A stretch of DNA of 64,000 bases from an uncultured Ignavibacteriales bacterium (GCA_964416195.1 CAYQDB010000007.1:78160-142159), one strand, 5' to 3'. Shown: positions 6,140 to 43,340, counted from the stretch's first letter. Numbers and translations are program-made. Notes: a model not told the origin generated them from the letters alone.

Positions 6140-6143
6140 GCTT

Positions 6144-11624: not shown

Positions 11625-11768
11625 GCAGCAGAAAACCGGTAGTCAGGTAGATCAGGACCCTCGTGAGGCTGACATCCTTTGTTTCTCCCTTTGGTTTTCT
11701 AGGTACCGGCAGGCGACTCGAGGTTGTCTCAAAAGTTAGTTCCAGTTGAATTAGGTCTACACCAAATA

Positions 11769-11875
11769 AGGTCGCCATTCCCTAACTCCGCGTAGCGGCG
11801 GGCTTTACGTCCGCCGGTGGCGTCGCCACGTTTAGGCGGGAGACAAGCCCCCGCCCTACGCAAGATAGTTACCTT
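11769..11875 (+). repeat. ~100-nt structured dispersed repeat, copy A
   Basis: AGGTCGCCATTCCCTAACTCCGCGTAGCGGCGGGCTTTACGTCCGCC...GGCGGGAGACAAGCCCCCGCCCTACGC...AGTTACCTT. It recurs at 45271-45370 (+) and 56141-56238 (-). It contains two internal hairpins plus an outer GCGTAG/CTACGC pairing. Confidence 0.8.
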
Positions 11876-12001
11876 ATGGGGCAGCCTCACTCTGCCTGAC
11901 GGTTCCTTCATGCAAGAGTGTTGACCATAGCTTGGAGCTATCGGGCCGAGTCGCCCAATAGCACATCACATAGGCAGGAATCAGGGATTCCTGTCTTGTC
12001 A

Positions 12002-12826
12002 CTAACTGCTTCCCTCTCTCAAGTACTCAATAGCCAGGTTTTCAAGTTCATCTCTTTGCATACAAAGCAACCGTGATGCTTTCAAACTTCCGGCTTGTAC
12101 AGCATGTTCCATGAACTTCAGGCCAATATAGTATCCTCCCCGGTATTGAAAGATGTCTTGTGGGTCTCTTGCGTAGAACATGCCTACATTCGGGTTGGTA
12201 GAAAAGAAATTGTCCAATAAGTATTTCTTCAACTCCCGCTCTCTGTCACGGCACTGGTCAAGCCAGTCCTCAATAGCCTCACCCGACAGGTAGTCCGCCC
12301 AGAGTGCGACGCTCTCGTCGATGTTGAGCGATATCATGCTCAGATAAGTCGCCATCCCTTCTGTAATCAACTGTCGCGAAACCTGAAGCTTTTCGCTAAC
12401 GCTGTTGAAATAGAACCCAGGAGAACAGGCGTAGTGCAATGCGTGGATAATCTCATGCGTCAGGAAGACTTCCGCGTCCAGGGGCGTCTTGTAGGTTTCA
12501 ACCGGAATCCAGACCACAAACGTATTCCCATCCTTGAAAGCATGACCATTCGAAGTGTTCATGCCCACAAAGAGGACTACTTGCAGGGATGAGACATCCA
12601 ATCCAAAAACAGTGAGCTTGCCAGCGATGCCCTCCAGACTATCTGTGATCAGGTTCACCCTGGCCCGTGTTTGATTTGCATCGAGGGTTGGGACAAAGCG
12701 GTTCCTGTCAGCCCAATACTCGAAATAGTGACTAAACAACCCCGGGTAGACCTGCTCGTAGGCAGTCAGGTCATGGTCATGGAGAATGTGAGTAAGGTAC
12801 GCACCTGTGAGGTTAATGACTTCCAC
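12002..12826 (-). CDS. Predicted Zn-dependent protease (DUF2268-like)
   Basis: 274 aa with an HExxH motif (LTHEIIHALHY). The family assignment is by general resemblance only. Confidence 0.5.
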   Translation of the reverse strand: MEVINLTGAYLTHILHDHDLTAYEQVYPGLFSHYFEYWADRNRFVPTLDANQTRARVNLITDSLEGIAGKLTVFGLDVSSLQVVLFVGMNTSNGHAFKDGNTFVVWIPVETYKTPLDAEVFLTHEIIHALHYACSPGFYFNSVSEKLQVSRQLITEGMATYLSMISLNIDESVALWADYLSGEAIEDWLDQCRDRERELKKYLLDNFFSTNPNVGMFYARDPQDIFQYRGGYYIGLKFMEHAVQAGSLKASRLLCMQRDELENLAIEYLREGSS

Positions 12827-12891
12827 GTTTGCAAGACCATGGCGGGAGGCGGAGGCTCCCGCTCTATAAAACCACTTGTACGATTGCTCTC

Positions 12892-15246
12892 TCAGTGTTG
12901 AAACTGCTCACTCAGACGACGGAAAAGATCCTCTCTGAAGGCAGCGCCATTGCGCACTGGCCAGCCAACGTCGCGCACCAAACGAGCCATCGACAGGTAG
13001 AAGCTGTAGCGCTCTACGATCGAACTCAACTCGGCGTTGCGGGCATTGCTGTATGCGTCGACAAGATCGACCAGCCCCAGCTTGCCACCTTCGTACTTCT
13101 CCAGGATCAGTTTCAGATTTTGTGTAGCCAGCTCGGCGGAACGAACCGCTCTCGGCACACTACCAACTTGCGCGACAAGGTCGCACGCTCCCCTGCGAAT
13201 TTCGCCCATCACTTCCAGACCAGCCGCATCCCTTTCAAACTCAACCTGGCTCAGCTTTGCTTTCAGCTTCGTGCGTTCCCGTATGCGGTCGGTGCCGAGA
13301 AATATCGGCAACACGAGTCCTCCCCACACCGACCAGGTGGTGCTTTCCTCAACAAAGGTTAGTGGTCTATCGACCAGTTGGTCGGCGTAATTGAGCGACG
13401 CCTGGAAATCGAGCGTGGGGTAGTACCGGGCTGTATTCTTCGACAGAAGGTCCTTTTGGATCGCGATGTCTATATCCAGGGATCGCAACGCGGGGTTCTC
13501 CTTCTGCCCTTCGCTCACCAGGAAATCTTGAAGCTGCTTCTGATCGGGCGCAGTAGGAACGAGAGCATGCAATAGATCATAATCATTCCAAAATCGTTTC
13601 TCGGAAAATAAAGTGGTGTCAAGAGCAAGGGGATTGTCTCCGGGAAGGTTGAACAGGACATTAAGAAGAACGTTAGCGGCCTGCACGCCCCACCTTGCAT
13701 GGATTATCCGCGAAGTCGCCTGGTGGCGTTCATCCTTCCAGCGAAGCAGGTCAATCTCACTGCCTTCTTCGAGAACCAATCGGGTGCCGGCAATCTCAAG
13801 GCTGCGATCCACCAAGGTGCGATAACGAAGCTGTGTTTCCAAGACCTCCTGCGCCCCAAGATAGGTGAGGTACGCGGCTGTGACCGCCAGCTCCAGATCG
13901 AGCTTTGCCTGCTGAAAGTTGGTCTGTTCGAGGTCCCTTTGCTTGGCAGCCAACTGGATCGATTTTATGGCGTCGGCAGAGAACACTGTCTGATTTAACC
14001 AGACCGTGGACCGGTAGCGGTCCTTCTCAAGCGTCCCCCTGGAATTCGCAACAGTGTTATCGTCAAGATGCGCTACTGATGCTCCCGCCACTATCTGGGG
14101 CAGGTAGGCGGAGTAGGCCTGCTTTGCCGCCTGGACAGCCGCCTCAACAGCGTCATATCGCGCCAGATAGCCGGGATTATACGACAGCGCCCGCTCCACT
14201 GCATCTGACAGAGTATACTTTGGCGTGGCTTCGGTAATAGGAGCCGCGACAAGATACGCATCGTCGGTGACCGCGGTTGGCAAACTAACCTGACACTGGT
14301 TAGCCGTCTGCTCATTTACGGCCAATGCCATTCCCCCACGGAACTTGACCTGCAAATTTGCCGGCTGTTCGCCTTGCAGGATGCGGGCAGCTTTGATAGC
14401 GTTGTACCTGGCCTCCGAGATAATAGAATAAGCTGCGTTGGAACCGAAAGCTCCTCTTTCTACCATACACTCTCCTTCAGAGGTAAAAGCAGGTATTCGG
14501 TCATGGGCCACCATCAGAAAGAACTCACTCACCTTGATATCATCCATCCCCCACAACGGCGGCAGGTACAGAGCATCGATCTTTTTGTCGAGCTGGTAAT
14601 AGGCTTTGAAAAAAGCGTAGGTCCCGTAGTTGTCAAAGCCTTCCGCAGTAACGACCTCGAAGCCGAGGTCTTTCCCAAACGAGTCAATTGTAGAAACAAT
14701 TGCCTGCCCCTCGTCACCTGATGGGAAATAGAGAACCCCAAGCCGCTTCACGCTCACAAGTTTGGCGAGGGTCTTCAGATCGTCCTCCAGTCGCCCCGGT
14801 ACTACATGCACTGTCAGATTGGGCGCAATAGGGCGACCGTCACTACCCACCAGCCCCTGCGCTATAGGGTCAAACTGGTGCATGGCCAGTATCGGTTTAG
14901 TGAATCCGGCCGCAAGCAGGTCTTCGATCACCCACGGCCCGAGCGCAACCACCATATCTATACTTGGCAGAGCGGCCAACTGCTTTGCCATAGCGCGGCA
15001 GGAGTCGCGTTTCCATCCTGCCGATCGGTACCCTTCCGGGACAAAGGCAAATTCACAATCCTCGGGCAGCACACACTGGAGCTGACGAGCGAATTCACTG
15101 CGCAGCACCACGTGAACGGGATATTGCCCTCCCTCGAAGTAGCCCAGGCGAAACTGCTTTTTCGGCTGAGCCGATAGCTCTGCCGCCCCACTTATCGCCA
15201 CAAAGGCACTGAGGCATACAATCACTGTTCTGTTAATCCAAATCAT
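12892..15246 (-). CDS. Fusion protein: ABC_sub_bind-type periplasmic binding domain plus TolC-family outer-membrane efflux domain
   Basis: Signal peptide, then ~330 aa resembling PF04392-type binding proteins (RLGVLYFPSGDEGQ..., RIPAFTSEGECMVERGAFG, ARILQGEQPANLQV). Then ~430 aa with two OEP/TolC repeats (LSDAVERALSYNPGYLA..., LDLELAVTAAYL...). Confidence 0.7.
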   Translation of the reverse strand: MIWINRTVIVCLSAFVAISGAAELSAQPKKQFRLGYFEGGQYPVHVVLRSEFARQLQCVLPEDCEFAFVPEGYRSAGWKRDSCRAMAKQLAALPSIDMVVALGPWVIEDLLAAGFTKPILAMHQFDPIAQGLVGSDGRPIAPNLTVHVVPGRLEDDLKTLAKLVSVKRLGVLYFPSGDEGQAIVSTIDSFGKDLGFEVVTAEGFDNYGTYAFFKAYYQLDKKIDALYLPPLWGMDDIKVSEFFLMVAHDRIPAFTSEGECMVERGAFGSNAAYSIISEARYNAIKAARILQGEQPANLQVKFRGGMALAVNEQTANQCQVSLPTAVTDDAYLVAAPITEATPKYTLSDAVERALSYNPGYLARYDAVEAAVQAAKQAYSAYLPQIVAGASVAHLDDNTVANSRGTLEKDRYRSTVWLNQTVFSADAIKSIQLAAKQRDLEQTNFQQAKLDLELAVTAAYLTYLGAQEVLETQLRYRTLVDRSLEIAGTRLVLEEGSEIDLLRWKDERHQATSRIIHARWGVQAANVLLNVLFNLPGDNPLALDTTLFSEKRFWNDYDLLHALVPTAPDQKQLQDFLVSEGQKENPALRSLDIDIAIQKDLLSKNTARYYPTLDFQASLNYADQLVDRPLTFVEESTTWSVWGGLVLPIFLGTDRIRERTKLKAKLSQVEFERDAAGLEVMGEIRRGACDLVAQVGSVPRAVRSAELATQNLKLILEKYEGGKLGLVDLVDAYSNARNAELSSIVERYSFYLSMARLVRDVGWPVRNGAAFREDLFRRLSEQFQH

Positions 15247-15356
15247 AGCCGCAATCTTCCTCTCACCGACTGCATGTCAGCAGAGAAATGATAGGGAATT
15301 TCAAGGGATTATTAAAGCGGATTTTGGAGAGGGAAGCGCCAGGGACGCTTAGCCGG

Positions 15357-15683
15357 TCACGTTTGCTTTGCAGCTTCAGTCTGAACCTGATTAATCATTT
15401 CTAAAAGCTGACTGGCGCGATACGGCTTTTGAAGGAACCGGACATTATGGTTGAGCTCGTCGGGGAGCTCATCGGGAGCAGGCGCCTCCCCACTGGAGAT
15501 TATACACGGTAAATCCGGCAAGACCTCCAAGAGATCCAACACAACCAGATCAATCCGGGAGTAGTCTTGAGAGAAGAGAGCGAGACCGCTCCGACCGGAA
15601 GTAGCAGTGAGGACATCAAAACCCGCCTTTGTCAGGATTCCCTTGACGAGGTTTTTGGTCATTTCTTCATCGTCGACGATCAT
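15357..15683 (-). CDS. Single-domain response regulator receiver (compact REC)
   Basis: Contains MIVDDEE, DLVVLDL, IISSG and LQKPY. The segment normally between the phospho-Asp and the conserved Ser/Thr is ~15 aa shorter than usual. Confidence 0.6.
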   Translation of the reverse strand: MIVDDEEMTKNLVKGILTKAGFDVLTATSGRSGLALFSQDYSRIDLVVLDLLEVLPDLPCIISSGEAPAPDELPDELNHNVRFLQKPYRASQLLEMINQVQTEAAKQT

Positions 15684-15863
15684 CCATTTGTCGCTGCACG
15701 GTGTAAGCTAATTCGGCATGACAGCAGACGTCAGACAAGCCAGACAGTTCCCAACTCAAAGATACCGAATGTGCCAGGCATCAACTGACGATAAAATAAC
15801 GGCCCGCTTGCCGCGAGCCGTTATCTTTAAGCGAAAGGACGCTTAAAAGAGGTATCCTCCACG

Positions 15864-16559
15864 TCATCCCTGAGATGGAGGTTCCTTATCCTTAACCATC
15901 CGTTTTTGACGCCGATTGTTCACCATGGCAAAAGAGAGATATTCCAGTTCCATAGCCATATTCTCGGTACGCAGACAAACATCATCAGGAACCCTGAGGT
16001 TTACCGGTGCGAAATTGAGTATAGACCTTACCCCAGCCTTGACAACATCATCAACAATATACTGGGCAACCGACGCCGGCACCGCGAGTATGACAATTTC
16101 TATTCTTGCTTCCTGAAGTTCCGCTTCCAGATTCCCGATGTCGGAAACAACAATACCTTTGTGATTGGAGCCGATCTTGCGCTGATCATTGTCAAACAGC
16201 TTGATAATCTGAAAGCCCTGCCTTTGGAACTCTTTATAGCTGACCAGCGCCGAGCCGATGTTTCCAACACCAATGAGGGCTACCCGCCACAGCCTATCAA
16301 TGCCCAGAATTGAAGCGATCTTCCTTTTTAACTCCTGGACGGGGTACCCCAAACCGCGGGTACCAAAAGACCCAAAGCAAGAGAGGTCCTTCCGTACCTG
16401 AGCTGGGGTGAGTTTTTCCCATTTGGCGAGTTCCTGGGATGAAACAGTCCTGTAATTGTCTTTCTCAAGAAGCGACAGCGCCCTGTAGTACAATGACAGG
16501 CGACGTATAGTGGATTCTGATATCCGCTTAGTTGATCCCGCTGCCATAGGAACATTCAT
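15864..16559 (-). CDS. rex: Redox-sensing transcriptional repressor Rex
   Basis: Winged-helix N-terminus (ISESTIRRLSLYYRAL) plus a Rossmann motif (VALIGVGNIGSAL). Confidence 0.9.
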   Translation of the reverse strand: MNVPMAAGSTKRISESTIRRLSLYYRALSLLEKDNYRTVSSQELAKWEKLTPAQVRKDLSCFGSFGTRGLGYPVQELKRKIASILGIDRLWRVALIGVGNIGSALVSYKEFQRQGFQIIKLFDNDQRKIGSNHKGIVVSDIGNLEAELQEARIEIVILAVPASVAQYIVDDVVKAGVRSILNFAPVNLRVPDDVCLRTENMAMELEYLSFAMVNNRRQKRMVKDKEPPSQG

Positions 16560-16592
16560 CTCAGTTTCTCACGTCCTCGCCCATAAGTATCA

Positions 16593-16612
16593 CATGTGAA
16601 ACGCTTCACATG
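16593..16612. promoter_or_regulatory. Rex operator (ROP) upstream of rex
   Basis: CATGTGAA-ACGC-TTCACATG has perfect 8-bp inverted arms. It matches the Rex consensus TGTGAA-N4-TTCACA and lies 34 nt upstream of the rex start. Confidence 0.75.
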
Positions 16613-16741
16613 AGATAACGTCCATTGCTGGTGGTGTCAAGCTAAATTCTCCAACAACGCCATAATGGTTACGTGAAACCACAATTGTTCCAATAACTTA
16701 TTCAAGCGCAAAGAGGCTCCGTGAGGCTCTTTACCAACCGC

Positions 16742-17896
16742 TTAGGCAACCTCGACTCTGGGGATCGTCGGGGAAATGCGCGCCAGCATCTCATAACTGA
16801 TCGTCATGGCCCATTCGGCCAGTTGTCCCGCTGAAACCATCTCCTTTCCGCTCTGCCCAAGGAGAGTCACTTCGTCTCCCAGCTTCACGCCCTTGATATC
16901 GGTTACATCGACCATCATAAGATTCATGCAGACACGCCCTCGCACCGGCGCTCGCCTGCCTTTGATCAACACGTGCGCTCTGTTTGATAGACCGCGATCA
17001 TAACCGTCGTAGTACCCCACCGGCAGCACCGCCAGGCGAGTGGGGGAGGTAGTGCGATAGGTGCATCCGTAGCCGACAAAGGTATCTGCGGGAAGCCGCC
17101 TGACCTGGGTAACTCTGGTTTTCCAGGTAAGGACCGGTTGAAACAGGTCATTTCGCCCGCCACGCAGACGATAAGAGAGGTATGTTTCCTTCGAGGGCCA
17201 GTGCCCATAGGCGGCAATACCCGGACGCACCAGTTGGAAGCGAGTCTCTTCAAAGAGAATCAAGGCCGCCGAGCAGGCCGTATGACACACTGTCGGTTTT
17301 ATCCCCAAGCGGCTCATGGCCGTCACCAGGCGGTTGAAGTTCCTGAGCTGATACTCGGCATACTCGTGGTTGGTAGTATCTTCAATGTTGGCGAAATGTG
17401 TGCTGGCTCCATATGGCCTCTTCAGGCCGGGGTGTTTCTTGTACATTTCTGCAAAGGCCGGGAGCTCCTTTTCAGTAATCCCCTGACGGTTGGTGCCGGT
17501 CTCCAGTTTCAGATGCGTTCTAACAGGCCGGCCGCGCTTGTCTGCAAGCTTTCCAAGACCGCTGAGAGTTCGCCTATCAAAGATAACCGGCTCCAGGTCG
17601 TATTCCAGCACCGCGTCAAGAGATCCCGACGCCACCGGACCGAGCAACATGATCCTCCTGTCCCAGCCGCCCTCGCGAGAGGCTATAGCTTCTTCAAGAG
17701 AATGAACTGAAACGTAAGTAACCTCCGGCAGGGAAACAAGCATACGTACAATCTCCCGCAAGCCGTGCCCGTAGGCATTGGCCTTGACCGATACGGCCAG
17801 CATCCTCCCCCCGGCCAGTTTTGCCAGCGATCTGACGTTGTGCTTCAAAGCAGAGCACGACAGCTCGATCCAGTTGAGTGGATGTTGTATAGACAT
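16742..17896 (-). CDS. alr: Alanine racemase
   Basis: PLP-lysine motif AVSVKANAYGHG, and the C-terminal domain conserves VGYGCTY...LPVGYYDGY. The start is probably ATG 17896 (MSIQHPLNW); the ORF-track start is 17947. Confidence 0.9.
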   Translation of the reverse strand: MSIQHPLNWIELSCSALKHNVRSLAKLAGGRMLAVSVKANAYGHGLREIVRMLVSLPEVTYVSVHSLEEAIASREGGWDRRIMLLGPVASGSLDAVLEYDLEPVIFDRRTLSGLGKLADKRGRPVRTHLKLETGTNRQGITEKELPAFAEMYKKHPGLKRPYGASTHFANIEDTTNHEYAEYQLRNFNRLVTAMSRLGIKPTVCHTACSAALILFEETRFQLVRPGIAAYGHWPSKETYLSYRLRGGRNDLFQPVLTWKTRVTQVRRLPADTFVGYGCTYRTTSPTRLAVLPVGYYDGYDRGLSNRAHVLIKGRRAPVRGRVCMNLMMVDVTDIKGVKLGDEVTLLGQSGKEMVSAGQLAEWAMTISYEMLARISPTIPRVEVA

Positions 17897-18056
17897 ATTA
17901 TAACTTACACTGCACAGAAGAAACAGGACAATAAAAAAGATAACCATATACTAAGGGTGTGGGTATACCTGAAGTTAGCAGATGTATGCCGTGATGAACT
18001 CTTGATCACATTTCCCTTGATTAATTGGCGGTCAACATCATTTATTACTTTTATAG

Positions 18057-18749
18057 ATGAAGGACATCATCTCCAGAAACCTCATGGAATTGCGCGGGCA
18101 GATCGCCGAGGCGTGTGACCAGTACGACCGCGATGCAGATGACATTACAATCGTCGCTGTCACCAAAACCCATCCGACGACCGTCATCAAAACTGCCGTA
18201 GCAGCCGGAATCCACGAAATCGGTGAAAGCAAAGTCCAAGAAGCCGACCAGAAAATCAACGACGTGGGGCATATTGCCCGTTTCCACATGGTCGGTCACC
18301 TGCAGACTAACAAAGCCAAAAAAGCAGTTCTTCTTTTCGATGTCATCCAGTCGATCGATTCTTTCAAACTGGCCTGGGAGATCAACCGTCAGGCCGGACT
18401 TGTTGATCGAACAATTGAGTGTTACATCGAAGTCAACAGCTCCGGCGAGAGTCAGAAGTTCGGTGTGGCCCCATCTGAGTGCCTTGATTTTGTGAGAAAA
18501 GTCAATGCCCTCGACAATATCAAGCTGACTGGCTTAATGACAATTGCGCCATTTACAGATGATGAAGATACCGTCCGCCGGTCTTTCCGCCTTTGTCACG
18601 AGCTGTTTGACCAGGCCAGCGAGATAGCGGGGGATAACTTCGACACTCTCTCGATGGGGATGTCGGACGATTTCCCGCTGGCGATCGCCGAGGGGGCGAC
18701 CATGATCCGCATCGGCACAGCGCTTTTCGGACCGCGCCAGATGACATAG
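18057..18749 (+). CDS. yggS: YggS-family pyridoxal-phosphate homeostasis protein
   Basis: 230 aa with VAVTKTHP (PLP Lys), HMVGHLQTNK and LSMGMSDDF. Confidence 0.9.
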   Translation: MKDIISRNLMELRGQIAEACDQYDRDADDITIVAVTKTHPTTVIKTAVAAGIHEIGESKVQEADQKINDVGHIARFHMVGHLQTNKAKKAVLLFDVIQSIDSFKLAWEINRQAGLVDRTIECYIEVNSSGESQKFGVAPSECLDFVRKVNALDNIKLTGLMTIAPFTDDEDTVRRSFRLCHELFDQASEIAGDNFDTLSMGMSDDFPLAIAEGATMIRIGTALFGPRQMT

Positions 18750-30683: not shown

Positions 30684-30755
30684 TAACCCTTTGAGACAAA
30701 CAATCTTCGTTATCAGTCACTTGTCAAGGGCACCAAAGTCGTAGTTACTAAGTCG

Positions 30756-31000
30756 TGTGGACACCTACATCCTCTTTGCCTAATCCCTCTCTGCCTAATC
30801 AGTTGAAGAATTAAGTAAATTAATACACGCAATGCCTTGACTGGAAGGCTCACACTTTCTATTTAGGCTTGTGAAACCTCTTGAGTATCATTGTGTTAAT
30901 AATGTGTGGAAAACTATCTTGGGGCTTTTAGCAATCGATTGTCCCAACTTACGTTACCTTTCGGGAAATAAGTCACAATTGTTGATATTTGTGTGGATAA
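30756..31000. other. oriC part 1: DnaA-box cluster upstream of dnaA
   Basis: All boxes are in the same orientation: TGTGGATAA at 30992-31000 (9/9 against the complement of TTATCCACA), TGTGGAAAA at 30905-13 (8/9) and TGTGGACAC at 30756-64 (7/9). An AT-rich patch lies at 30807-30830. Confidence 0.7.
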
Positions 31001-31090
31001 GATTCTGTTAAATAATCCATTATCTGTTGAAGGATTCAGAGACCGCAATAACCTTCGCAATAAAACCGTTTATCACGAGGGGGTACGCCA

Positions 31091-32467: not shown

Positions 32468-32747
32468 TAGTTTGTGGGTAAATAAAGTGGAAAAGTTGCG
32501 GGCAAATAATCACTCTAGCTCCTATGACTGTAACTGCCGAACTATGAACACTTGCTCCACTCCGCTGTGTATAGGAGGACAAAAGACACCGATATTAAAT
32601 TGTTGCCACCTATAGCATAAAAGCACGATATTATGTTAGTATTTAGATTGTCAACATTTGAAGAATACATATTACTAATACTATATAGATAGATACAAAG
32701 AGTAATTATATGTTTCTGTGGAGAACATTCATCAGAGGAAATAATCA
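32468..32747. other. oriC part 2: dnaA-dnaN intergenic region with DnaA boxes and an AT-rich unwinding candidate
   Basis: TGTGGGTAA at 32473-81 (8/9), GTGGAAAA at 32487-94, and TGTGGAGAA at 32717-25 (8/9). A strongly AT-rich stretch runs ~32590-32710. Confidence 0.6.
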
Positions 32748-33860
32748 ATGAAATTTTCATTACCTAAATCGCGACTCAGTGGTTACCTGCAGTATATACT
32801 ACAGGTGGTACCCGCTAAGTCAACACTGCCTATTCTGACAAACCTCTTAATTGAGGCTTTGGAAAATAGGATTAAGCTATCAGCTACTGATCTTGATATT
32901 TCTATTTCTACGTCGCTTGAGTGCGCTGTTGCTAAGAAGGGTTCTATATGTATGCCTGCTCGGATACTCTTTGAGATCATAAAGGAACTTCCGGAAACGG
33001 AGATTGCTTTTGAGACGACAGCCTCGCGTGTGGAAATAAAAATACCAAACGGTTCTTATAAAATCGCCGGTATATCTGCAGAGGACTTTCCCAAACTCCC
33101 GGCCGTTAATACTAAGAAGGAGATTAGAATTAGTGGTGGGGACCTAACCGGGATGATAAAGAAAACAACCTTTGCCTGTTCCGACGATGAGACCCGACCG
33201 GCATTAAATGGCATCCTTTGGCAAACCAAGGGTGACAAAATGCAGATGGTTGCCACCGATGGACACCGATTAGCTAAGTTTGCAGTTGAGAACCCAAAAC
33301 TCAAGGGCTTATACGATGACGTTATTATTCCCCCAAAGGTGCTTGATATTATACCACGGCTGCTGTCGCATGAGGGAGACGAGGTGGGAATCATTTTTGG
33401 TGAAAATAATATAATCTTCAACTTAGGTGATATTATTCTAAGTTCACGCCTAATAGAAGGACCGTATCCTAATTTTGAGCAGGTAATCCCAACATCTAGT
33501 GATAAGAAACTTACAGTGTCAAAGACGGAGCTTGCAAGTGCGGTACGACGCGTCTCAATACTGTCAAATGCCCTTACCCACCAGGTGAAGTTTGGTCTCC
33601 AAGAGAACCAACTAACACTGTCGACCGCAAATGCTGACATGGGTGGGGAAGGAAAAGAGGTGCTGGAATGTGACTATGTCGGTGAGCCGATTGAGCTGGG
33701 GTACAATGCGAGTTACATTACCGATGTGCTCGGAAGAATCGATGGGGATGAGGCGGTATTTGAATTTTCCTCACCTGTCGCTGCGGCTATTGTCTATAGC
33801 CCCGAGACCCCCAAGGAAGATTTCCTCTGTCTGGTGATGCCACTGCGGCTGGCTGACTGA
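32748..33860 (+). CDS. dnaN: DNA polymerase III beta sliding clamp
   Basis: 370 aa with the three-domain clamp layout and typical motifs (LPILTNLLIEA, ATDGHRLA, MPLRL). Confidence 0.95.
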   Translation: MKFSLPKSRLSGYLQYILQVVPAKSTLPILTNLLIEALENRIKLSATDLDISISTSLECAVAKKGSICMPARILFEIIKELPETEIAFETTASRVEIKIPNGSYKIAGISAEDFPKLPAVNTKKEIRISGGDLTGMIKKTTFACSDDETRPALNGILWQTKGDKMQMVATDGHRLAKFAVENPKLKGLYDDVIIPPKVLDIIPRLLSHEGDEVGIIFGENNIIFNLGDIILSSRLIEGPYPNFEQVIPTSSDKKLTVSKTELASAVRRVSILSNALTHQVKFGLQENQLTLSTANADMGGEGKEVLECDYVGEPIELGYNASYITDVLGRIDGDEAVFEFSSPVAAAIVYSPETPKEDFLCLVMPLRLAD

Positions 33861-33957
33861 TGATTTTTGCACCCCATTAAGTTATTGTTGTGCCTATACT
33901 TACTTTTGTAAACAAAACAGAGAACTGGTTTAGCTCCTACAGATCGCAGATAAGTGA

Positions 33958-34035
33958 TTGACATTATTGCCTTATAAGTTATTATTAGAGTGAGGGTTAT
34001 TTTTGTTGACATAATAAGGGTGTTTCTCGTAGTAA
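33958..34035 (+). promoter_or_regulatory. Candidate tandem promoters for the three-gene cassette
   Basis: TTGACA 33958-63, 16 nt, TATTAT 33980-85. Then TTGACA 34006-11, 18 nt, TAGTAA 34030-35. A third TTGACA sits at 34042-47. The spacer is AT-rich. Confidence 0.4.
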
Positions 34036-34076
34036 GTTTTATTGACAAAAGTAACGACTTAGTAAGGGAGAGTTAA

Positions 34077-34541
34077 GTGGAGGTGAGTATGGATCCTTTG
34101 GATCTACAGAAGGATGCTCATTTGTTCAGGCTTGGCTATTTGACTGCGAAAATTGTACCAATTTTTGACAGGCCAAGCTTGAGTGAGTCTAATAGGAGGC
34201 TACTACAGAGCGCGAAAAAGCTGCTGACAGACATTAAGGGCGGTCGGGAGTTTATTGTGAGTTTTAGCTCGAATTTCGAGGCTGACACGCTGAGCAAAGT
34301 TGAAATCTACTCATTCTTCGTGGAGAACATCAAAGAACTCGTGGGAAATGGGGACCTGGACAAGTTTATTGAGACAGTCGATCAGAGTGAGGAATTCCTA
34401 GGTAGCCTTCTTGAGGGTAAGGAACTAGAAAACAAACAGCTAGGGGTTCTGAAAAAGACATTCTCACAAATGTCGAAAGTCCTAGTTGAGACGGCTAGGA
34501 TAGCTGATGCCCATGTGGAGAAAAGGGTCTGGATCGAGTGA
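34077..34541 (+). CDS. Hypothetical protein (154 aa, acidic, helical), first gene of the dnaN-recF insert
   Basis: ORF with GGAG-type sequences upstream; the start is GTG 34077 or ATG 34089. No recognisable motif. It is packed 6 nt from the next ORF. Confidence 0.5.
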   Translation: MEVSMDPLDLQKDAHLFRLGYLTAKIVPIFDRPSLSESNRRLLQSAKKLLTDIKGGREFIVSFSSNFEADTLSKVEIYSFFVENIKELVGNGDLDKFIETVDQSEEFLGSLLEGKELENKQLGVLKKTFSQMSKVLVETARIADAHVEKRVWIE

Positions 34542-34547
34542 CGCTCC

Positions 34548-36041
34548 ATGGCCGACCACAGCTATAAACTACTGCTCACAGAAACACTTCTTCGTTTAGA
34601 TCTTCTCAAGCGAAAGATATTAAAGGAGAAAGCTAAAGACTTTCCCTCTCTTTCCCCTCTCATTTTTCTAACAACCCTTCTTGAAATAGTAAGCATCTTC
34701 AAGGAGGAATTAGCGAAACTCCATAGGGATTATATTGAAAACCATACAGTAAACCTTGACCTGATCATTTCCTTCTCACTATACACCCGGAGATTATCCT
34801 ACCACTTGTCGTTTGTGGAAAAGACGGGCAGTGAACATGTCCCCTGGAGCTTGATTCCACCTATTGAGGGTATCTTTCGACAGTTCCACAAAGAGCATAA
34901 GTTCATTGTCAGCGCACAGCCGGAATTCAACTATACTTATATGGAGTTATTGTCGGTGTATGAGGAACTCGTAGGGGAGATTATAGCCCCCGACAATCTT
35001 CGCAACCGACTGTATGAGCGAGCTAAGGGAGAGCTAACAGATTCACAATTTACTGAAGCTTTTTTTCCAAAAAATAAGTTTTATTCAAGATTTGGGTTCA
35101 TTTTCTTTCCCGCCGTTGAACGGAACTCCGTCTTTCAGCATGTTCTACTTGGTCACGAAATTGGATATAACTTCTTCTCTCTACAAAACCTCATTAATTT
35201 GATCCCAACGAACCTTCCTCTTTGGCGCCAAAAGCTACTGGAAGCCCTCGGCTACACTCAGGACGATGTGCAGAGGGACCTGCAGAAGGATGCCACGTAC
35301 AGGGAGAAGCTTGAACAAATGCTGGGGTATCTCGTGACGGGCCTCATCGAACTGGCCTGTGACATATTTGCGGTCAACACCTTTGGCCTTGCTGCACTCT
35401 TTGCTTTTGACAGTCATCTTGCCGGTACTGAGTCCTTTGACAAGATAGGGTCTTACGGCAGCAAAGTCTTGATGTACCCTCCTGGTCGATACAGACTAAG
35501 GGTCATCTGCAAGTTGGTAAAGGACTCGGGTGTAAATGAACGTCTTAAAAATCAAGCATCATCTGACAGGCGCCTTGTCACTGCTGTTTTGCGCAGGTTG
35601 AAACACATAGAAGAAGTTGTAGCAGATGAACAAGACAGGGCCAGTATCCAAAGTGACCCCGCGACAAGCGTAGCCTATGAGATCATTGATTCTAAGATTG
35701 ACGACCTGTTTAACGTCGTTTCTCGTACTTTTCCTAAAGACTATCCAAAAGGATTGGATTTGGACCAGTCTATTGTTCTCAAACTCGCAAATAGGTTGAA
35801 AGACAACATTATTCCGTGTGAAATCTACTCGTGCGTTGAGGAGAACTTTAGGGATAATTTAGATATCAACTACCGGCATATCATCAATGCTGGATGGTAT
35901 CACCGAATTGCTAACATCGATCTACTTGACGATATGCAGGAGTACATTGAAAGTATGAAAATAGCAAGCCGGTTGATCTTGAAAGCAATTGAGCTTAACG
36001 AAACCGGAACTAAATGGATGACCAAAAATGTCCCACAGTGA
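34548..36041 (+). CDS. Hypothetical protein (497 aa) with a near-miss metallopeptidase-like motif
   Basis: Long uninterrupted ORF in a ~39 % GC context. It has LLGHEIGYNFF (H203-E204-x-x-Y207) and, 65 aa later, LIELACDIFAVNTFG, which recalls the HExxH...E..A(N/D).FA layout of ImmA/IrrE-type peptidases. No confident family. Confidence 0.6.
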   Translation: MADHSYKLLLTETLLRLDLLKRKILKEKAKDFPSLSPLIFLTTLLEIVSIFKEELAKLHRDYIENHTVNLDLIISFSLYTRRLSYHLSFVEKTGSEHVPWSLIPPIEGIFRQFHKEHKFIVSAQPEFNYTYMELLSVYEELVGEIIAPDNLRNRLYERAKGELTDSQFTEAFFPKNKFYSRFGFIFFPAVERNSVFQHVLLGHEIGYNFFSLQNLINLIPTNLPLWRQKLLEALGYTQDDVQRDLQKDATYREKLEQMLGYLVTGLIELACDIFAVNTFGLAALFAFDSHLAGTESFDKIGSYGSKVLMYPPGRYRLRVICKLVKDSGVNERLKNQASSDRRLVTAVLRRLKHIEEVVADEQDRASIQSDPATSVAYEIIDSKIDDLFNVVSRTFPKDYPKGLDLDQSIVLKLANRLKDNIIPCEIYSCVEENFRDNLDINYRHIINAGWYHRIANIDLLDDMQEYIESMKIASRLILKAIELNETGTKWMTKNVPQ

Positions 36042-36675
36042 TGAGTCTCCCCGCGGCGAGGTTCTGAACAAAGCGGAGATTAAGGCTCGACTTCGAAGCG
36101 ACGAGCCTAGCAAGAAGTTAATTATTTCGCCGCTGTTGTCTACAGACCAAATTGCCGATGGAGCTGTCGATTTAAGGCTTGCAAGCGAGTTTTTAATTAC
36201 AAGGCGCACAGCGTTCTCTACACTTGATATTGCGCTCTCTCAGCAGTTTCAGAGAAACGCAGAGCGTTACCAAATTCATACTTATGTTCCGTATGGCCAA
36301 AAGATCGTACTACACCCAAGCGAGCTAATACTCGGAAGCACATTCGAGTACATTTGCCTGCCTAGGGACTTATTCGCATACATTTTGAGCAGGTCTTGTT
36401 GGGGAAGATTAGGTTTGGTGGTTGCCACTGCGGCACCTGTAAACCCGGAATTCAAAGGATGTTTAACGCTGGAAATGGTAAACTTGGGTGAGGTTCCCCT
36501 GACACTTTATCCTGGGCTGCCCATCGCACAGCTGATACTGCACACCTGCATGCAGGGCCATTATGACGGTGCCTATAAGTGTCCGACTGGTCCCAAACCT
36601 TCAAATGTGTGTTCGGATGAGAATACGGAAGAGAATGAGTTTTGGACCAAACATGTGAAGTATTACCCGCAGTAG
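36028..36675 (+). CDS. dCTP deaminase / dUTPase-fold protein (Dcd-like) with a Cys/His-containing C-terminal tail
   Basis: It aligns by eye to E. coli Dcd: VDLRLA, LHPSELILGSTFEYICLPRDL, SRSCWGRLGLVV, PEFKGCLTLEMVNLGEVPLTLYPGLPIAQLILH. The start overlaps the upstream stop by 14 nt. Confidence 0.8.
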   Translation: MSHSDESPRGEVLNKAEIKARLRSDEPSKKLIISPLLSTDQIADGAVDLRLASEFLITRRTAFSTLDIALSQQFQRNAERYQIHTYVPYGQKIVLHPSELILGSTFEYICLPRDLFAYILSRSCWGRLGLVVATAAPVNPEFKGCLTLEMVNLGEVPLTLYPGLPIAQLILHTCMQGHYDGAYKCPTGPKPSNVCSDENTEENEFWTKHVKYYPQ

Positions 36676-36684
36676 CGAACCTCG

Positions 36685-37773
36685 ATGCATCTCGTCAGTC
36701 TATCTGTCACCAACTTCCGCAACCTTAGTGGTGTAGAAATAAACCCTTCGCCTGGTGTAAATATCCTACATGGTAACAATGGTGCCGGTAAGACAAATTT
36801 GCTGGAAGCGATTTTTGTGCTATGCCTGAGCCGCTCGCAGCGTGGAGCAACGGATTCGGTTATGGTGAAGCAGGGGGCGGAGGTCTATCGAATTGAGGGG
36901 CAGATCCAACAGCGGGGGGTGATGCGCGAGGTAGCTGTTGCCTATCAAAGAGGGGGGCGCAAGAGGATAACGCTGGACCAGGTACCTGTAAGAGCCCGCG
37001 ATCTCTATGAGAACTATTGCGCTGTAGCGCTGGGGCCGGAGGATACGGAAATACTGTCCGGATCTCCTGCGGTCCGAAGGAACTTTCTGGATATCTACCT
37101 ATCTCAGTTTTCGAGTAGATACCTTGCTTGCTTGGTTGACTATCATAAGGTCCTCATGCATAAAAATGCTTGCCTTAGGTTGGACGGCGACCCCACTCCT
37201 TTCAATGTCCTGCTTGTCGACCACGGTGCGAAAATCATCACGGCCCGTTGTGAATTCATACAAGAGCTTGACCGCCTTGCCAAAGAGTGCTACGCCGAGA
37301 TTTCCAATGGTGGAAGTCTTCGTCTTACGTATCAGCCGTCAATCCCTCTGGAAGCAGGGCAAACGGAAACCGACGAGATAGGACAGAGTTTCAAGGTAGC
37401 GCTAGCCAAACACGGAGAGAGGGAACGATCAGCGCAAACGTCGTTAGTAGGGCCACACCGTGATGAGGTTTTGTTTCAAATAGGTGAATATCTGGCTCGG
37501 ACGCATGGTTCACAGGGTGAATGGCGGACAGCCGCGATTGCAATTAAGCTGGCCATCTATCGCCTGCTAAGGGATAAGCGCCAAATGCGGCCGGTATTGC
37601 TGCTTGACGAAGTATTTGCTGAACTCGACGAGCAGCGGTCGGCAGCGCTGACTAAGTCCTTCGCAGATTTTGGTCAGCTGTTTATGACCACGGCGACTGA
37701 GCCGCCGGAGTGTTTGCGCCAGCAAGGAAGAAAGTTCAGTGTGCGCGAGGGAACCGTTCAGGAGGTAGGTTGA
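36685..37773 (+). CDS. recF: DNA replication and repair protein RecF
   Basis: Walker A GNNGAGKTNLLEA, signature region LVGPHRDE, and Walker B VLLLDEVFAELD. Confidence 0.9.
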   Translation: MHLVSLSVTNFRNLSGVEINPSPGVNILHGNNGAGKTNLLEAIFVLCLSRSQRGATDSVMVKQGAEVYRIEGQIQQRGVMREVAVAYQRGGRKRITLDQVPVRARDLYENYCAVALGPEDTEILSGSPAVRRNFLDIYLSQFSSRYLACLVDYHKVLMHKNACLRLDGDPTPFNVLLVDHGAKIITARCEFIQELDRLAKECYAEISNGGSLRLTYQPSIPLEAGQTETDEIGQSFKVALAKHGERERSAQTSLVGPHRDEVLFQIGEYLARTHGSQGEWRTAAIAIKLAIYRLLRDKRQMRPVLLLDEVFAELDEQRSAALTKSFADFGQLFMTTATEPPECLRQQGRKFSVREGTVQEVG

Positions 37774-39656: not shown

Positions 39657-42600
39657 TTGAAAATTCAACGGTATTTCACCCGTGAGAATGAGTCACCATA
39701 TAGCGATATAGAATTCATTGCCCGGTCCTCGGAGATAAAAAATCCGGACGGTTCGACTGTCTTTAAACAGGAGGGCATCCAGGTACCGCGTCAGTGGTCA
39801 CAGGTGGCGGTGGACATACTAGCGCAAAAGTATTTCCGCAAGGCCGGAGTTCCCAAAACCGACAGTAAAGGCAATGTTGTAAGCGATGCCGAGGGAAATC
39901 CGGTGTATGGAGGCGAGACAGACTCGCGGCAGGTTTTCCACCGGCTGGCCGGCTGCTGGCGGCACTGGGGAGAGAAATACGGATATTTCGACAGCACCCG
40001 TGATGCGCAAGCATTCTATGACGAGATGTGCTACATGCTGGCAGCGCAGATTGTCGCTCCCAATTCACCGCAGTGGTTTAACACCGGCCTTCACTATGCT
40101 TATGGCATTGCGGGGACGCCGCAAGGGCATTACTACATTGACCCGGCTAATCACACTCTCACCGAGACTAAGAACGCCTATGAACGTCCCCAGCCGCACG
40201 CCTGCTTCATCCAGTCGGTAGCCGATGACCTTGTTAATGATGGGGGCATCATGGACCTCTGGCGTCGAGAGGCGCGTCTGTTTAAGTATGGTTCCGGCAG
40301 CGGGACGAATTTCTCCAACATCCGCGGGGCCAACGAATCTCTTTCAGGTGGCGGCAGGTCTTCAGGTTTGATGTCGTTTCTTCGTATCGGCGACCGGGCT
40401 GCGGGGGCCATCAAATCCGGCGGAACCACCCGGCGGGCGGCCAAAATGGTCTGTCTGGACCTGGATCATCCGGATATTGAGGAGTTCATCGACTGGAAAG
40501 TTGTCGAGGAGCAGAAAGTTGCCGCCATGGTCGCCGGCTCGAAGGTAATAACCTATCATCTGCAGGAGATCGTCAAAGCGGCACAAGTCTCCGGCACCAA
40601 CGGCGATACAGTTATCGAGACAGACCTGGCTAAAAATGCTGCTTTGAAAGAGGCTGTGCGCAATGCCCGGCATATGGCGGTGCCTCCTGTTTACATTAAA
40701 AAGGTTCTTGACTTGGCGGCTCAGGGGATAACGGAGATTGATTTTATTGACCTGAACACTGACTGGGAAAGCAATGCCTATATGACGGTCTCCGGTCAGA
40801 ACTCCAATAACTCCGTGCGTATCTCTAACAGATTCTTTGAGAAAGTGAAAGCGGGTGAGGAGTGGGAGCTCGTCCGGCGTACTGACGGTAAGACCGCTCG
40901 GACAATCCCGGCATCAAAGTTGTGGGAGAAGATCTGCTACTCGGCCTGGGCTTGTGCCGACCCCGGGGTGCAGTTTGATACGACCATCAATGAGTGGCAC
41001 ACCTGTCCGGAGGATGGACGCATCAACTCCTCGAATCCCTGTTCGGAGTACATGTTCCTGGACGACACCGCCTGCAATCTGGCGTCGATAAACGTGGCGA
41101 AGTTCCTCAGAGATGACGGAAGCCTTGACATTGAAGGTTACCTGCATGCCATACGCCTCTGGACGGTCGCTCTTGAGATATCTGTGTTGATGGCTTCTTA
41201 TCCATCGCCCACGATTGCACAGAAGAGCTATGAGTTCCGCACGCTGGGACTGGGATTTGCCAATTTTGGAACGCTTTTGATGTGTCAGGGGATTCCGTAC
41301 GACTCAGCCGAGGGGTACACCTGGGCTGCGGCGCTTAGCGCTCTGCTGAGTGGTCAGGCGTATGTGACTTCCGCTGAAATGGCCCGTGAGCACGGCCCCT
41401 TTCCGGCCTTCTATCACAATCGTGACCATATGCTGAGGGTGATCCGGAATCATCGCCGGGCCGCCAATAATGCGGATAAGTCGGAATATGAAGGTTTGAC
41501 CACCAAACCGATGGGACTGAACCCCAACTACCTGCCGGAAGAAATCGTGAAGTCTGTCCAACAGGTCTGGGACGAAGCGCTGGAGCTTGGAGAGACTCAT
41601 GGCTACCGCAATGCTCAGGTCTCGGTGATAGCTCCGACGGGGACAATCGGTCTGGTGATGGACTGCGATACCACAGGTATCGAACCTGATTTTGCCCTGG
41701 TTAAGTTCAAGAAGTTGGCCGGGGGTGGCTATTTCAAAATCATTAACAACTCGGTCCCGGTGGCGCTAAAGAAACTTGGCTACTCGCCCGAGGAGATCAA
41801 CGATATTATTCTCTATGCTACCGGTCGCAAGACGCTCAAGCAGGCTCCGTACATAAATCATGAATCTCTGAAAGCCAGGGGATTCGGTGATGCGGAGCTT
41901 GACAAGGTGGAGGCGAGTCTTGAGAACGTTTTTGATATTTCATTCGCCTTCAACAAGTACACGCTGGGCGAGGATTTCTTGAAAGACTCGCTGGGCCTTT
42001 CTGCTGAGACAATTGACGCCTGGGATTTCAACCTCCTGCGGGAATTGGGCTTCACCAAGGAGCAGATGGAGGCCGCCAATGAATACTGCTGTGGCACTAT
42101 GACTGTAGAGGGGGCGGCACATCTCGATGAAAAGCATCTGCCCGTTTTCGACTGTGCCAATCGTTGCGGCAAGAAGGGTCGGCGCTTTATTCCGTTTGAG
42201 GCGCATATCAGGATGATGGGAGCCGCTCAGCCGTTTGTCTCGGGAGCTATCTCCAAGACTATCAATATGCCGGCGGAGGCTGGTATCGACGATGTGAAAC
42301 GGGCGTACCGTCTCGCTTGGGAATCAATGAACAAGGCCATTGCCGTATACCGGGATGGGTCCAAGCTGAGCCAGCCGCTGACCTCGGCATTGTTTGACGA
42401 GGACGAAGAGAGCGAAGGGCTTTCGGTGAGCGTTGTGTCGCAAAAGATGGCCGAAAAGCTGGTGTACCGCTATATCGCCAAACGGCGCAAATTGCCCTAT
42501 CGCCGGGGAGGCTATACGCAGAAGGCGGTTGTTGGAGGGCACAAGATTTATCTTCGCACCGGTGAGTATTCTGACGGCACACTGGGAGAGATATTCCTCG

Positions 42601-43340
42601 ATATGCATCGTGAGGGTGCGGCCTTCCGCTCTCTGATGAACAGCTTCGCCATTGCCATATCGCTGGGGTTGCAGCACGGCGTGCCGCTTGAGGAGTATGT
42701 CGAGGCTTTTCTGTTCAGCCGCTTTGAGCCGAATGGGTTCGTGCAGGGAAATGGGTCGATAAAAAGAGCAACGTCGATCATAGATTACATCTTTAGAGAA
42801 CTTGCTATCACTTATCTGGACCGTAACGACTTGGCACATGTATCCACGGACGATCTGCGCGGGGACACCCTCGGTGTGCCGGCGGGGGAATCGACCGAGT
42901 TTGAGTCCGAGGAACCGGCAAAGCCGCTTGGGTCGGAGCACGTCACAGCGGGAAATCGTATTGTTAACGACATTCACACCGCCCATCTCAATGTGCAACA
43001 CGAACACGGTGGCAACGGCAACGGTAACGGCAACGCCAGAACGGGACACTCAAGAGGTAATGGGAATGGTCAACCCGTCTGGGCCGGACCTGAACGGCCG
43101 CTGGAGAGTAAGACTGCAACTTCGGAATCTGAGGCGTCGGAGAGGGCGCTTGAGTATGTCGCTGCGCCGGCTGGAACGAGTGACAGAGAGAGCAGCCGCA
43201 GACTACAGCACGAGATTAGAACGGCGCGCCTGAAGGGATACGAGGGGGACATGTGCCAGGAATGCGGGCAGTTCACGATGGTCCGCAATGGCACCTGTCT
43301 GAAGTGTGATACGTGCGGCGCCACCAGCGGCTGCAGCTAA
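39657..43340 (+). CDS. nrdJ: Class II (adenosylcobalamin-dependent) ribonucleotide reductase
   Basis: 1227 aa with a TTG start 6 nt after AGGAGG. It has the thiyl-Cys loop [10 protein letters not shown]...CNLASIN, a long low-complexity linker (GNGNGNGN) and the C-terminal CQECG...CLKCDTCG redox/zinc tail. Confidence 0.9.
43011..43034 (+). repeat. Hexanucleotide tandem repeat (GGYAAC)x4 inside nrdJ
   Basis: GGCAAC GGCAAC GGTAAC GGCAAC encodes GNGNGNGN. A second GNGNG stretch follows at 43056-43070. Confidence 0.8.

Follow-up and report, generated by a model that had tools for sequence, protein, structure and literature searches.

The window, that is, the whole 64,000-nucleotide (nt) stretch analysed here, is one strand of DNA from an uncultured Ignavibacteriales bacterium (GCA_964416195.1, CAYQDB010000007.1:78160-142159), with positions counted from its first letter. 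Between dnaN and recF, it holds three co-oriented open reading frames (ORFs), mapped at 34077/34089-34541, 34548-36041, and 36028-36675. They are called orfA, orfB, and dcd below, and encode a small protein (A), a protein of 497 amino acids (aa) (B), and an enzyme of the deoxycytidine triphosphate (dCTP) deaminase family (Dcd). This A-B-Dcd cassette belongs to a module that recurs in bacteria of at least ten phyla. Residue numbers of B (e.g., H203, E268) and of Dcd (e.g., S123, E149) are those of the window proteins.

Layout of the locus

The three genes are tightly packed. A gap of 6 nt (CGCTCC) separates orfA from orfB, orfB and dcd overlap by 14 nt (ATGTCCCACAGTGA, 36028-36041), and a gap of 9 nt (CGAACCTCG) precedes recF. 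The ORF map and the sequence reproduce exactly the layout given in an initial annotation of this DNA, made from the sequence alone, and its end of dnaN (33860) and start of recF (36685) are those of the genes identified with Pfam (Table 1). For orfA, two starts can be considered, GTG 34077 (154 aa) and ATG 34089 (150 aa). The latter is the most likely one, because the protein-database form starts there and a GGAGGTG ribosome-binding site precedes it. No terminator-like site was seen after dnaN, nor between dcd and recF, and recF is probably co-transcribed with the cassette by read-through from dcd.

Table 1. Coordinates of the cassette, its flanking genes, and the elements discussed in the text.
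Feature	Position	Strand	Basis
dnaN, DNA polymerase III beta clamp, upstream flank	32748..33860	+	all three DNA_pol3_beta Pfam domains match
AT-rich spacer with promoter-like element	33861..34088	+	GC 0.33-0.34, hexamer and promoter scan
orfA, small 150-aa protein, predicted adaptor/inhibitor of the module	34089..34541	+	ORF map; without catalytic signature
orfB, 497 aa, HExxH…ExxxD family, predicted sensor/regulator/protease	34548..36041	+	profile search, alignment, AlphaFold2 model
HEIGY motif in orfB	35154..35168	+	alignment of 60 family members
E268-x-x-x-D272 in orfB, predicted third metal ligand and supporting Asp	35349..35363	+	alignment, model
Hyper-divergent patch in the middle of orfB, about aa 135-285, with the 208-262 insert between motifs	34951..35400	+	identity and Ks versus L001
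Dcd-family enzyme, 215 aa, predicted effector	36028..36675	+	PF22769, TIGR02274
Dcd catalytic codons S123; R127; E149	36394-36396; 36406-36408; 36472-36474	+	alignment with E. coli Dcd
recF, downstream flank	36685..37773	+	SMC_N and AAA_23 Pfam domains
Tract of raised identity to L001, recombination/exchange tract, mosaic inside	34055..36730	.	sliding identity, boundary alignments, Ks

A module of three proteins shared across phyla

Homologous loci were collected by scanning one genome per species (Genome Taxonomy Database, GTDB), which returned 35 loci, and the linkage to Dcd was judged by ORF and hidden Markov model (HMM) analysis in 31 loci from other phyla that were long enough for this purpose. 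In 29 of these 31 loci, a Dcd gene comes after the orfB homologue, at a distance of -29 to +95 nt, or forms a fusion with it, which bears out a co-occurrence that the initial annotation had raised as a possibility. The module-linked Dcds are close to that of the window (phmmer 1e-36 to 1e-58). Fusions of B and Dcd are found at seven genome loci (717-746 aa), and all seven of the database members longer than 650 aa that were tested are also B+DCD fusions; as both are fused in one polypeptide, B and Dcd are linked in the manner of a Rosetta-stone pair. Directly 5' of the orfB homologue, a co-oriented gene of 143-196 aa is present in about 30 of 37 loci. A-B-Dcd is one conserved functional unit. 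The single unit that the initial annotation had proposed from gene packing is upheld by the same A-B-Dcd order in dozens of loci and by the fusion of B to Dcd in many lineages. The cassette is not peculiar to this lineage, as shown by the recurrence of the trio in at least ten phyla and by an orfB family of about 680 clusters.

The two loci without Dcd are L012, where the contig ends just past orfB, and L031. The latter, in a Solibacteraceae metagenome-assembled genome (MAG), holds an orfB-family gene and a small upstream gene (2509-4478), with no Dcd within the 14-kb locus, the sole exception of its kind; its effector may have been lost or swapped.

The bacterial hosts comprise Planctomycetota (including the cultured Aporhodopirellula rubra), Acidobacteriota, Nitrospirota, Verrucomicrobiota, Bacteroidota, Myxococcota, Spirochaetota, Ignavibacteriota, Gammaproteobacteria, Actinomycetota, and Syntrophorhabdales, to which one Methanobacteriaceae MAG is added. 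The distribution is patchy, over at least ten phyla and one archaeal MAG, and a neighbour-joining tree of the family mixes phyla. The module is accessory and horizontally transferred, with the exception of the window's clade, where it is fixed. A tblastn search also located it on the conjugative plasmid pBq66S1MBa of Bradyrhizobium quebecense (L042, 5985-8916), in the order MerR regulator, 145-aa hypothetical protein, 462-aa hypothetical protein, and a gene annotated 'dcd'. There, the RefSeq labels read 'hypothetical' for A and B, and plain 'dcd' for the enzyme. Around this plasmid copy lie an adjoining DDE transposase, a recombinase gene further downstream, patatin-like and PLD-like phospholipases, and an S8 peptidase. 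A scan of metagenomes gave as its only match a contig already in the set. The archaeal copy (L009) is a complete A-B-Dcd on a contig of 2.9 kb, and its B nests among bacterial sequences; either the module was transferred between domains, or this very short contig was misbinned.

The third protein of the cassette matches the DCD model PF22769 (E=5e-30, 105 bits for a cut-off of 27) and the equivalog model TIGR02274 (110.7 bits, above the curated cut-off of 92.8), and its best sequence matches in the PDB are the Dcds of Mycobacterium tuberculosis and Escherichia coli (E=7e-20 to 5e-18). Window residues S123, R127, and E149 correspond to S111, R115, and E138 of E. coli Dcd. The catalytic Ser/Arg/Glu are invariant in all 22 module-linked Dcds of an alignment of 23 sequences including E. 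coli Dcd. Judged by its sequence, the third protein is a bona fide member of the Dcd family with an intact deaminase site. The Dcd/dUTPase fold with retained catalytic residues recognized in the initial annotation is confirmed by the two models and the alignment, and the E149 that it singled out is the catalytic Glu (E. coli E138).

By profile search, the module enzymes belong to the same family and fold as the housekeeping Dcd (E. coli b2065; TIGR02274; PF22769) and the bifunctional Dcd-Dut enzymes of M. tuberculosis and Methanocaldococcus jannaschii. They are 30-41% identical to E. coli Dcd, and share with it the C-terminal Tyr and the Gly-Pro lid residues. They differ from it by a Trp in place of Leu113 (SSWGR) and by a module-specific C-terminal tail, …CPTGPxxS…FW. 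Unlike the canonical Dcd of E. coli, which is a stand-alone gene, the module Dcd was never found alone among the module loci: it is coupled or fused to B, usually with an A gene ahead. Its patchy, horizontally transferred distribution, with one plasmid-borne copy, also sets it apart from the housekeeping enzyme.

Neither A nor B has a match in Pfam, NCBIfam, or PADLOC, and sequence and profile searches of the PDB returned only noise for both; the initial annotation, likewise, could place neither protein in a family. Word-indexed searches, which retrieved only three or four relatives, had suggested that the orfB family is tiny. This was overturned by an exhaustive profile search of 1.84 billion representatives, which returned 680 cluster representatives at E≤1e-3, of which 362 reach E≤1e-10. 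In an alignment of 60 members, P188, H203, E204, E268, D272, and R316 are invariant (60/60), and G206, H207, P311, P312, R314, R318, R416, and W450 are nearly so. About 60 residues separate the resulting HExGH motif from ExxxD. An H-E-x-x-H motif followed downstream by E-x-x-x-D is the signature of gluzincins, of the thermolysin (M4) and neprilysin (M13) type. The description of B in the initial annotation as a large helical partner was, therefore, incomplete, as the family carries this invariant signature of metallopeptidase type.

An AlphaFold2 model of B built from a three-sequence alignment was unusable (predicted local distance difference test, pLDDT, 41), whereas the 60-sequence alignment yielded a pLDDT of 92.4 and a predicted template modelling score (pTM) of 0.92. 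In this model, a three-stranded sheet (117-124, 130-133, 181-188) is followed by a helix (195-206) carrying H203 and E204; E268 and D272 lie on a long helix (245-279), and the remainder is helical. This local topology, with a three-stranded sheet, an HExxH helix, and a Glu helix, is compatible with a zincin, and showed no peptidase match when the whole model was searched with Foldseek. More generally, that search gave no match with E<0.5 in the PDB or BFVD (best PDB match E=0.57, TM-score below 0.2), and a Pfam scan of the 60 members placed no model on the orfB-family region, and no peptidase family. As in gluzincins, the signature residues sit, in the model, on two helices beside a small beta-sheet. 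Unlike gluzincins, B is a large helical assembly that neither sequence nor structure searches link to any peptidase family, the window copy reads HEIGY, and the peptidase role is predicted from the motif. B is best described as a new family, with a putative zincin-type active-site signature in an otherwise unmatched predicted fold.

The identity of B with ImmA/IrrE peptidases (M78), suggested by an 'ExxANxFA'-like stretch, was rejected, as none of the 60 members matches the Pfam family and the invariant pattern is ExxxD. ImmA/IrrE-type metallopeptidases paired with helix-turn-helix (HTH) repressors, such as CapP-CapH of CBASS (cyclic oligonucleotide-based antiphage signalling system), are HExxH metallopeptidases encoded beside an immune effector that they control. 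The present module may be analogous in concept, with an HExxH protein encoded beside a candidate immune effector. It differs in that no B member (0/60) matches Peptidase_M78/ImmA, A is not an HTH protein, and B is fused to the effector rather than to a repressor.

The window copy of B departs from its family at one position of the motif. Residue 207 is His in 59 of the 60 members (HExGH), and Tyr in the window copy alone, giving HEIGY (Tyr codon TAT, 35166-35168). This is not an assembly error, because 13 contigs assembled independently encode the identical protein. The window orfB, thus, keeps the ExxxD motif and lacks a complete HExxH motif, the second His ligand being missing. From the sequence, H207Y may mean that metal binding is lost or altered, and only in this organism, and the window B may be catalytically altered, or a scaffold only; the substitution suggests that the catalytic function of B is changed in this organism, while Dcd is intact.

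Protein A is small and evolves fast. It has no invariant residue and no catalytic signature, and looks like a helical bundle. The small proteins of the window's clade (F3) are related to the main cluster of small proteins (F1) with an hhalign probability of 94.9% (E=4e-8), and the main cluster is weakly related to a second one (hhalign probability 71%).

The copy fixed in the replication operon

The arrangement dnaN-[A-B-Dcd]-recF is found in at least five lineages: that of the window, P0002 (three independent assemblies), P0003 (L004, where dnaN and recF fragments flank the cassette), P0010 (L043, with recF after Dcd), and P0011 (GCA_026397505.1), in which the full synteny ileS-dksA-lspA-mrp-dnaA-dnaN-A-B-Dcd-recF-ABC is seen. 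The orfB-family proteins of these five lineages form one clade in the neighbour-joining tree, which is why a single ancient insertion between dnaN and recF, followed by vertical inheritance, fits the data. Between the window and the related locus L001, Ka/Ks, the ratio of non-synonymous to synonymous substitution rates, lies at 0.13-0.27 for each of the three cassette genes (0.13 for orfA and 0.17 for dcd). This corresponds to purifying selection, and the cassette genes are, therefore, considered functional.

The divergence of A and B is decoupled from that of the core genes (Table 2). For a DnaN identity of 83-84%, B is 81% identical in one pair of loci, and 37% in another.

Table 2. Amino-acid identity (%) in three pairs of loci.
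Pair	DnaA	DnaN	RecF	A	B	Dcd
Window versus L048	60	72	51	34	32	60
L048 versus L004	n/a	84	62	32	37	71
Window versus L001	80	83	69	92	81	88

The window and L001 share about 70-75% of their nucleotides over mrp, dnaA, dnaN, recF, and the ABC gene, where Ks is 1.6-1.8 or saturated. From about 34055, just before the orfA ribosome-binding site, to about 36730, some 50 nt into recF, nucleotide identity is mostly 84-97%. Inside this tract, the central patch of orfB falls to 59-82%, versus 90-97% in the rest of the cassette, and the Ks of orfB changes accordingly, from 0.07 (aa 1-134) to 0.57-2.1 (aa 135-300) and 0.43 (aa 301-497). Positive selection in the central patch was considered and rejected: Ka/Ks is about 0.2-0.4 throughout the sub-regions of orfB, and about 0.2 in the patch, where Ks is high, which argues for a different ancestry of the patch rather than adaptive change. 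The simplest reading is that segments of the cassette were exchanged by recombination between related lineages after their core genomes had diverged. A chimeric assembly is argued against, because the window and L001 contigs both recur in independent assemblies.

Base composition adds no sign of foreign origin. The computed guanine-plus-cytosine (GC) content is 0.450-0.454 for orfA, 0.435 for orfB, and 0.480 for dcd, compared with 0.483 for dnaA, 0.456 for dnaN, and 0.525 for recF, the other 43 long ORFs of the window having a mean of 0.518 (standard deviation 0.032). Although orfB is the ORF with the lowest GC content in the window (z=-2.6), dnaN is similarly low (z=-2.0), and none of the cassette genes has a GC at third codon positions as low as that of dnaN (GC3, 0.447). 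As dnaN is equally AT-rich, composition fails to mark the cassette as foreign, and this argument was abandoned. The contrast drawn from hand counts in the initial annotation, of 38-40% in the two unknown genes and about 47% in the Dcd-like gene versus 57-63% in dnaA and recF, was overstated: the computed values are 45, 43.5, and 48%, versus 48% for dnaA and 52.5% for recF. Overall, part of what the initial annotation listed as arguments against a separate nucleotide-targeting system was found, namely a core position within one clade, vertical inheritance, and native-like composition.

Upstream of orfA, the spacer measured to GTG 34077 is 216 nt long, with a GC content of 32.9%, and carries TTGACA three times (33958, 34006, and 34042); its length, AT-richness, and three hexamers agree with the initial annotation. 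The first hexamer (33958-33963) is followed, after 16 nt, by a TATTAT -10 element (33980-33985), and this pair is the best sigma-70-like site on the + strand in 9 kb, matching 11 of 12 positions. Two of the hexamers (33958 and 34006) are kept in L001, despite a spacer identity of only about 71%. Over the whole window, TTGACA occurs 63 times, versus 33.6 ± 6.2 expected from shuffles, an approximately twofold excess; three occurrences in about 200 nt are far above even this raised background. A 19-nt inverted repeat (33900-33918 / 34036-34054), 89% complementary and with 117 nt between its arms, brackets these hexamers; L001 conserves it only in part. The repeat may serve as an operator or may have arisen by chance.

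Other features of the window surround the replication genes. The intergenic regions around dnaA are AT-rich (30684-31090 and 32468-32747, GC 0.36-0.42) and contain a perfect DnaA box, TTATCCACA, at 30992, and boxes with one mismatch at 30905, 32473, and 32717. DnaA-box-like 9-mers are also enriched across the whole window (30 versus 11.5 expected). These AT-rich regions and boxes suggest that the window probably holds the chromosomal origin. Three kb from the cassette, an ORF of 1227 aa (39657-43340) resembles, by eye, a class II (B12-dependent) ribonucleotide reductase, with a long C-terminal extension that includes a GNGNGNGN low-complexity run and a terminal CxxC…CxxC cluster. If it is such a reductase, it would be a further gene of deoxynucleoside triphosphate (dNTP) supply near the cassette. 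Rfam gave no match anywhere in the window.

Possible functions and their significance

The genes flanking the module vary from locus to locus, and their defence context was scored by PADLOC scans of the neighbours within 10 kb. In a Syntrophorhabdus MAG (L037), the module lies directly after PglX and BrxL, of the bacteriophage exclusion (BREX) type; in L027, DruE (Druantia) and a type IIG enzyme stand on either side of it; in L018, a Bacteroidetes MAG, a type IIG enzyme adjoins it. A PD-T4-6-like kinase is near the module in L033, and type I restriction-modification (R-M) genes and HTH regulators are found near some loci. In A. rubra CECT 8075 (L036, NZ_JACHXU010000003.1, 2575-18079), A-B-Dcd is located between DrmMI and DrmA/DrmB/DrmC, inside DISARM (defence island system associated with restriction-modification); as this strain is a cultured isolate, its copy is a convenient experimental source. 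Other recurrent neighbours are of a different kind. In Pyrinomonadaceae with the fused form (L014, L015, L019), the stretch immediately ahead of A repeatedly holds a dioxygenase of the TauD family, about 390 aa long, and an 80-aa gene (approximate length), and deoxynucleoside kinases are near two loci in other phyla. The dioxygenase, the 80-aa gene, and the kinases may be lineage-specific additions to the module.

The favoured reading, whose chances of being right are put at about even, is that of a protease-gated dCTP deaminase module of conflict-system origin that became fixed in the replication operon. Put more broadly, the module is most likely a regulated system acting on the nucleotide pool. 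Metal binding, peptidase activity, gating, dCTP depletion, and an anti-phage role are what we infer for it. The output enzyme would be the Dcd-family deaminase, converting dCTP to deoxyuridine triphosphate or monophosphate (dUTP or dUMP). At rest, A, B, or the conserved C-terminal tail of Dcd itself would keep the Dcd trimer inactive. The variable parts of A and B would sense a trigger that activates the putative metallopeptidase of B, with A or the …FW tail of Dcd as candidate targets of cleavage, or that causes a conformational change. Once freed, the deaminase would make the dCTP pool collapse and dUTP/dUMP rise, so that the replication of an invading phage or plasmid would be blocked. As to its origin, the family behaves like a horizontally mobile conflict module, which would have been inserted once between dnaN and recF and inherited there with its own promoter, A and B turning over rapidly and close relatives occasionally exchanging the cassette by recombination.

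Nucleotide depletion has a precedent in the defensive dCTP deaminase (Tal et al., 'Antiviral defense via nucleotide depletion in bacteria'), a single polypeptide with a zinc-dependent cytidine-deaminase fold and an N-terminal kinase-like domain; AvcD, of the AvcID system, is controlled by an RNA antitoxin. The predicted logic of the present module would be analogous to both, deoxycytidine nucleotides being deaminated to starve phage replication, and some of its loci also lie in defence islands. The window enzyme, nevertheless, has the Dcd/dUTPase fold, with 215 aa and a DCD domain only, devoid of kinase or cytidine-deaminase domain; it has two protein partners, and its fused forms carry a B domain and not a kinase. 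The parallel would, therefore, be one of convergence and not homology. The antiphage precedent cited in the initial annotation, thus, holds as a functional analogy, and fails as a relationship. Full-text literature searches combining dCTP deaminase with defence or metallopeptidase themes returned no description of an A-B-Dcd module, which appears to be undescribed in the searchable literature; the annotation's word 'undescribed' is also consistent with the lack of a corresponding model in PADLOC-DB v2. Its idea of a nucleotide-targeting defence system is partly sustained, by some loci that lie within or adjoin DISARM, BREX, Druantia, and type IIG R-M genes and by the plasmid-borne copy, and receives nothing from PADLOC matches, the anti-phage role being a prediction.

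Several observations weigh against a defence module. Only about 4-6 of 31 loci carry hallmark defence genes at a distance of up to 10 kb, a raw count from a set with many short contigs, and this proportion does not reach the defence score (>0.33) applied to the known family of defensive dCTP deaminases. Many neighbours are ordinary metabolic genes. PADLOC (PADLOC-DB v2) has no match to any of the three window proteins, and none at E≤1 for Dcd; searches of phage and viral collections (IMG/VR scans with two alignments, and tblastn versus phage genomes) returned no homologue. Island signatures are also scarce, with a tRNA gene within 10 kb in only 7 of 31 loci, none of them adjacent, and no direct repeats flanking the cassette, the composition of which is native-like. 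The stable retention of the cassette in a core replication operon, across a divergence down to 60% DnaA identity, is unusual for defence systems, and its Dcd scores above the cut-off of the housekeeping equivalog model. Finally, the zincin assignment of B comes from motifs and model topology only, Pfam, PDB sequence searches, and Foldseek showing no zincin, and the window B is devoid of one presumed metal ligand.

Some of these points are what a housekeeping dCTP deaminase would lead one to expect. In such a role, which is the leading rival explanation and rather unlikely, Dcd would be the normal route to dUMP and deoxythymidine triphosphate (dTTP), A and B would serve as chaperone or assembly factor, or as allosteric or proteolytic regulators, and the operon slot would couple the enzyme to the replisome. 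The TIGR02274 score with all catalytic residues kept, a core position shared by at least five lineages that form one clade, with gene order preserved between ileS and the ABC gene, purifying selection, a composition like that of dnaN, metabolic genes flanking many loci in other phyla (with deoxynucleoside kinases near two), and the lack of PADLOC matches and viral homologues are all in keeping with it. A housekeeping deaminase would, however, have no need for a 480-aa HExxH partner, as the stand-alone enzyme of E. coli illustrates; nor would it be expected in a rare and patchy family (about 680 clusters in 1.84 billion representatives) whose tree mixes phyla, with copies on a conjugative plasmid beside a transposase and in DISARM, BREX, and Druantia islands. 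The much faster evolution of A and B than of core genes, and the recent exchange of the cassette between lineages, also speak against it. A further possibility, which we consider unlikely, is a new class of immune or checkpoint module, in which a metalloprotease with a predicted fold unmatched among solved and viral-library structures, together with A, would sense a phage- or replication-derived cue and gate Dcd, thereby converging on the dCTP depletion of the unrelated cytidine-deaminase-fold enzymes; in the window lineage, permanently built into the dnaA-dnaN-recF operon, it would act in replisome-coupled surveillance of the dNTP pool and not as an accessory carried on an island, H207Y marking a shift from protease gating to another control.

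The plasmid copy near transposase and recombinase genes, together with the patchy distribution, could also be explained by a toxin-antitoxin or addiction system, in which Dcd would be a dCTP-draining, growth-arresting toxin, A its labile antitoxin, and B a protease or co-regulator acting on the stability of A, persistence being due to post-segregational or stress-induced arrest and not to phage defence. The compact, translationally coupled architecture, the small and poorly conserved first gene, and the HTH, MerR, or Xre-type regulators that are often adjacent would suit this explanation, which is improbable on balance: it is B, and not A, that is fused to Dcd, and this, with the size of B, suggests a sensor over a simple antitoxin protease; vertical retention in an essential operon brings no addiction benefit; and the components match no known toxin-antitoxin family. 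Slightly less probable still is a reversal of roles, with the Dcd-fold domain sensing unusual dCTP derivatives or a pool imbalance, and B as an effector protease degrading cellular or phage proteins. Trimeric dUTPases have a precedent as signalling proteins in staphylococcal islands, and B does have the more elaborate conserved surface (R314, R316, R318, R416, W450) in addition to its protease-type signature. The deaminase catalytic triad that is invariant in 22 of 22 module-linked Dcds, nevertheless, favours catalysis over mere binding, and the intact Dcd next to a mutated B site in the window copy suggests that Dcd is the indispensable activity.

If the favoured reading of a gated deaminase depleting dCTP on demand is true, the module would represent a second, evolutionarily independent enzyme fold recruited for nucleotide-depletion immunity. 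Its controller would be of a new kind as well, about 480 aa long, with a gluzincin signature and a confident predicted fold that is unmatched in PDB and viral structure libraries. The module moreover reveals a blind spot of annotation: with the enzyme labelled plain 'dcd' and its partners 'hypothetical', it is invisible in annotations and defence catalogues, despite its presence in at least ten phyla. For the window lineage, the finding would mean that a conflict-type module has been captured in a highly conserved gene string and kept through deep divergence, while its sensor-like parts still diversify and recombine. This lineage may be of use in research on the domestication of accessory systems.

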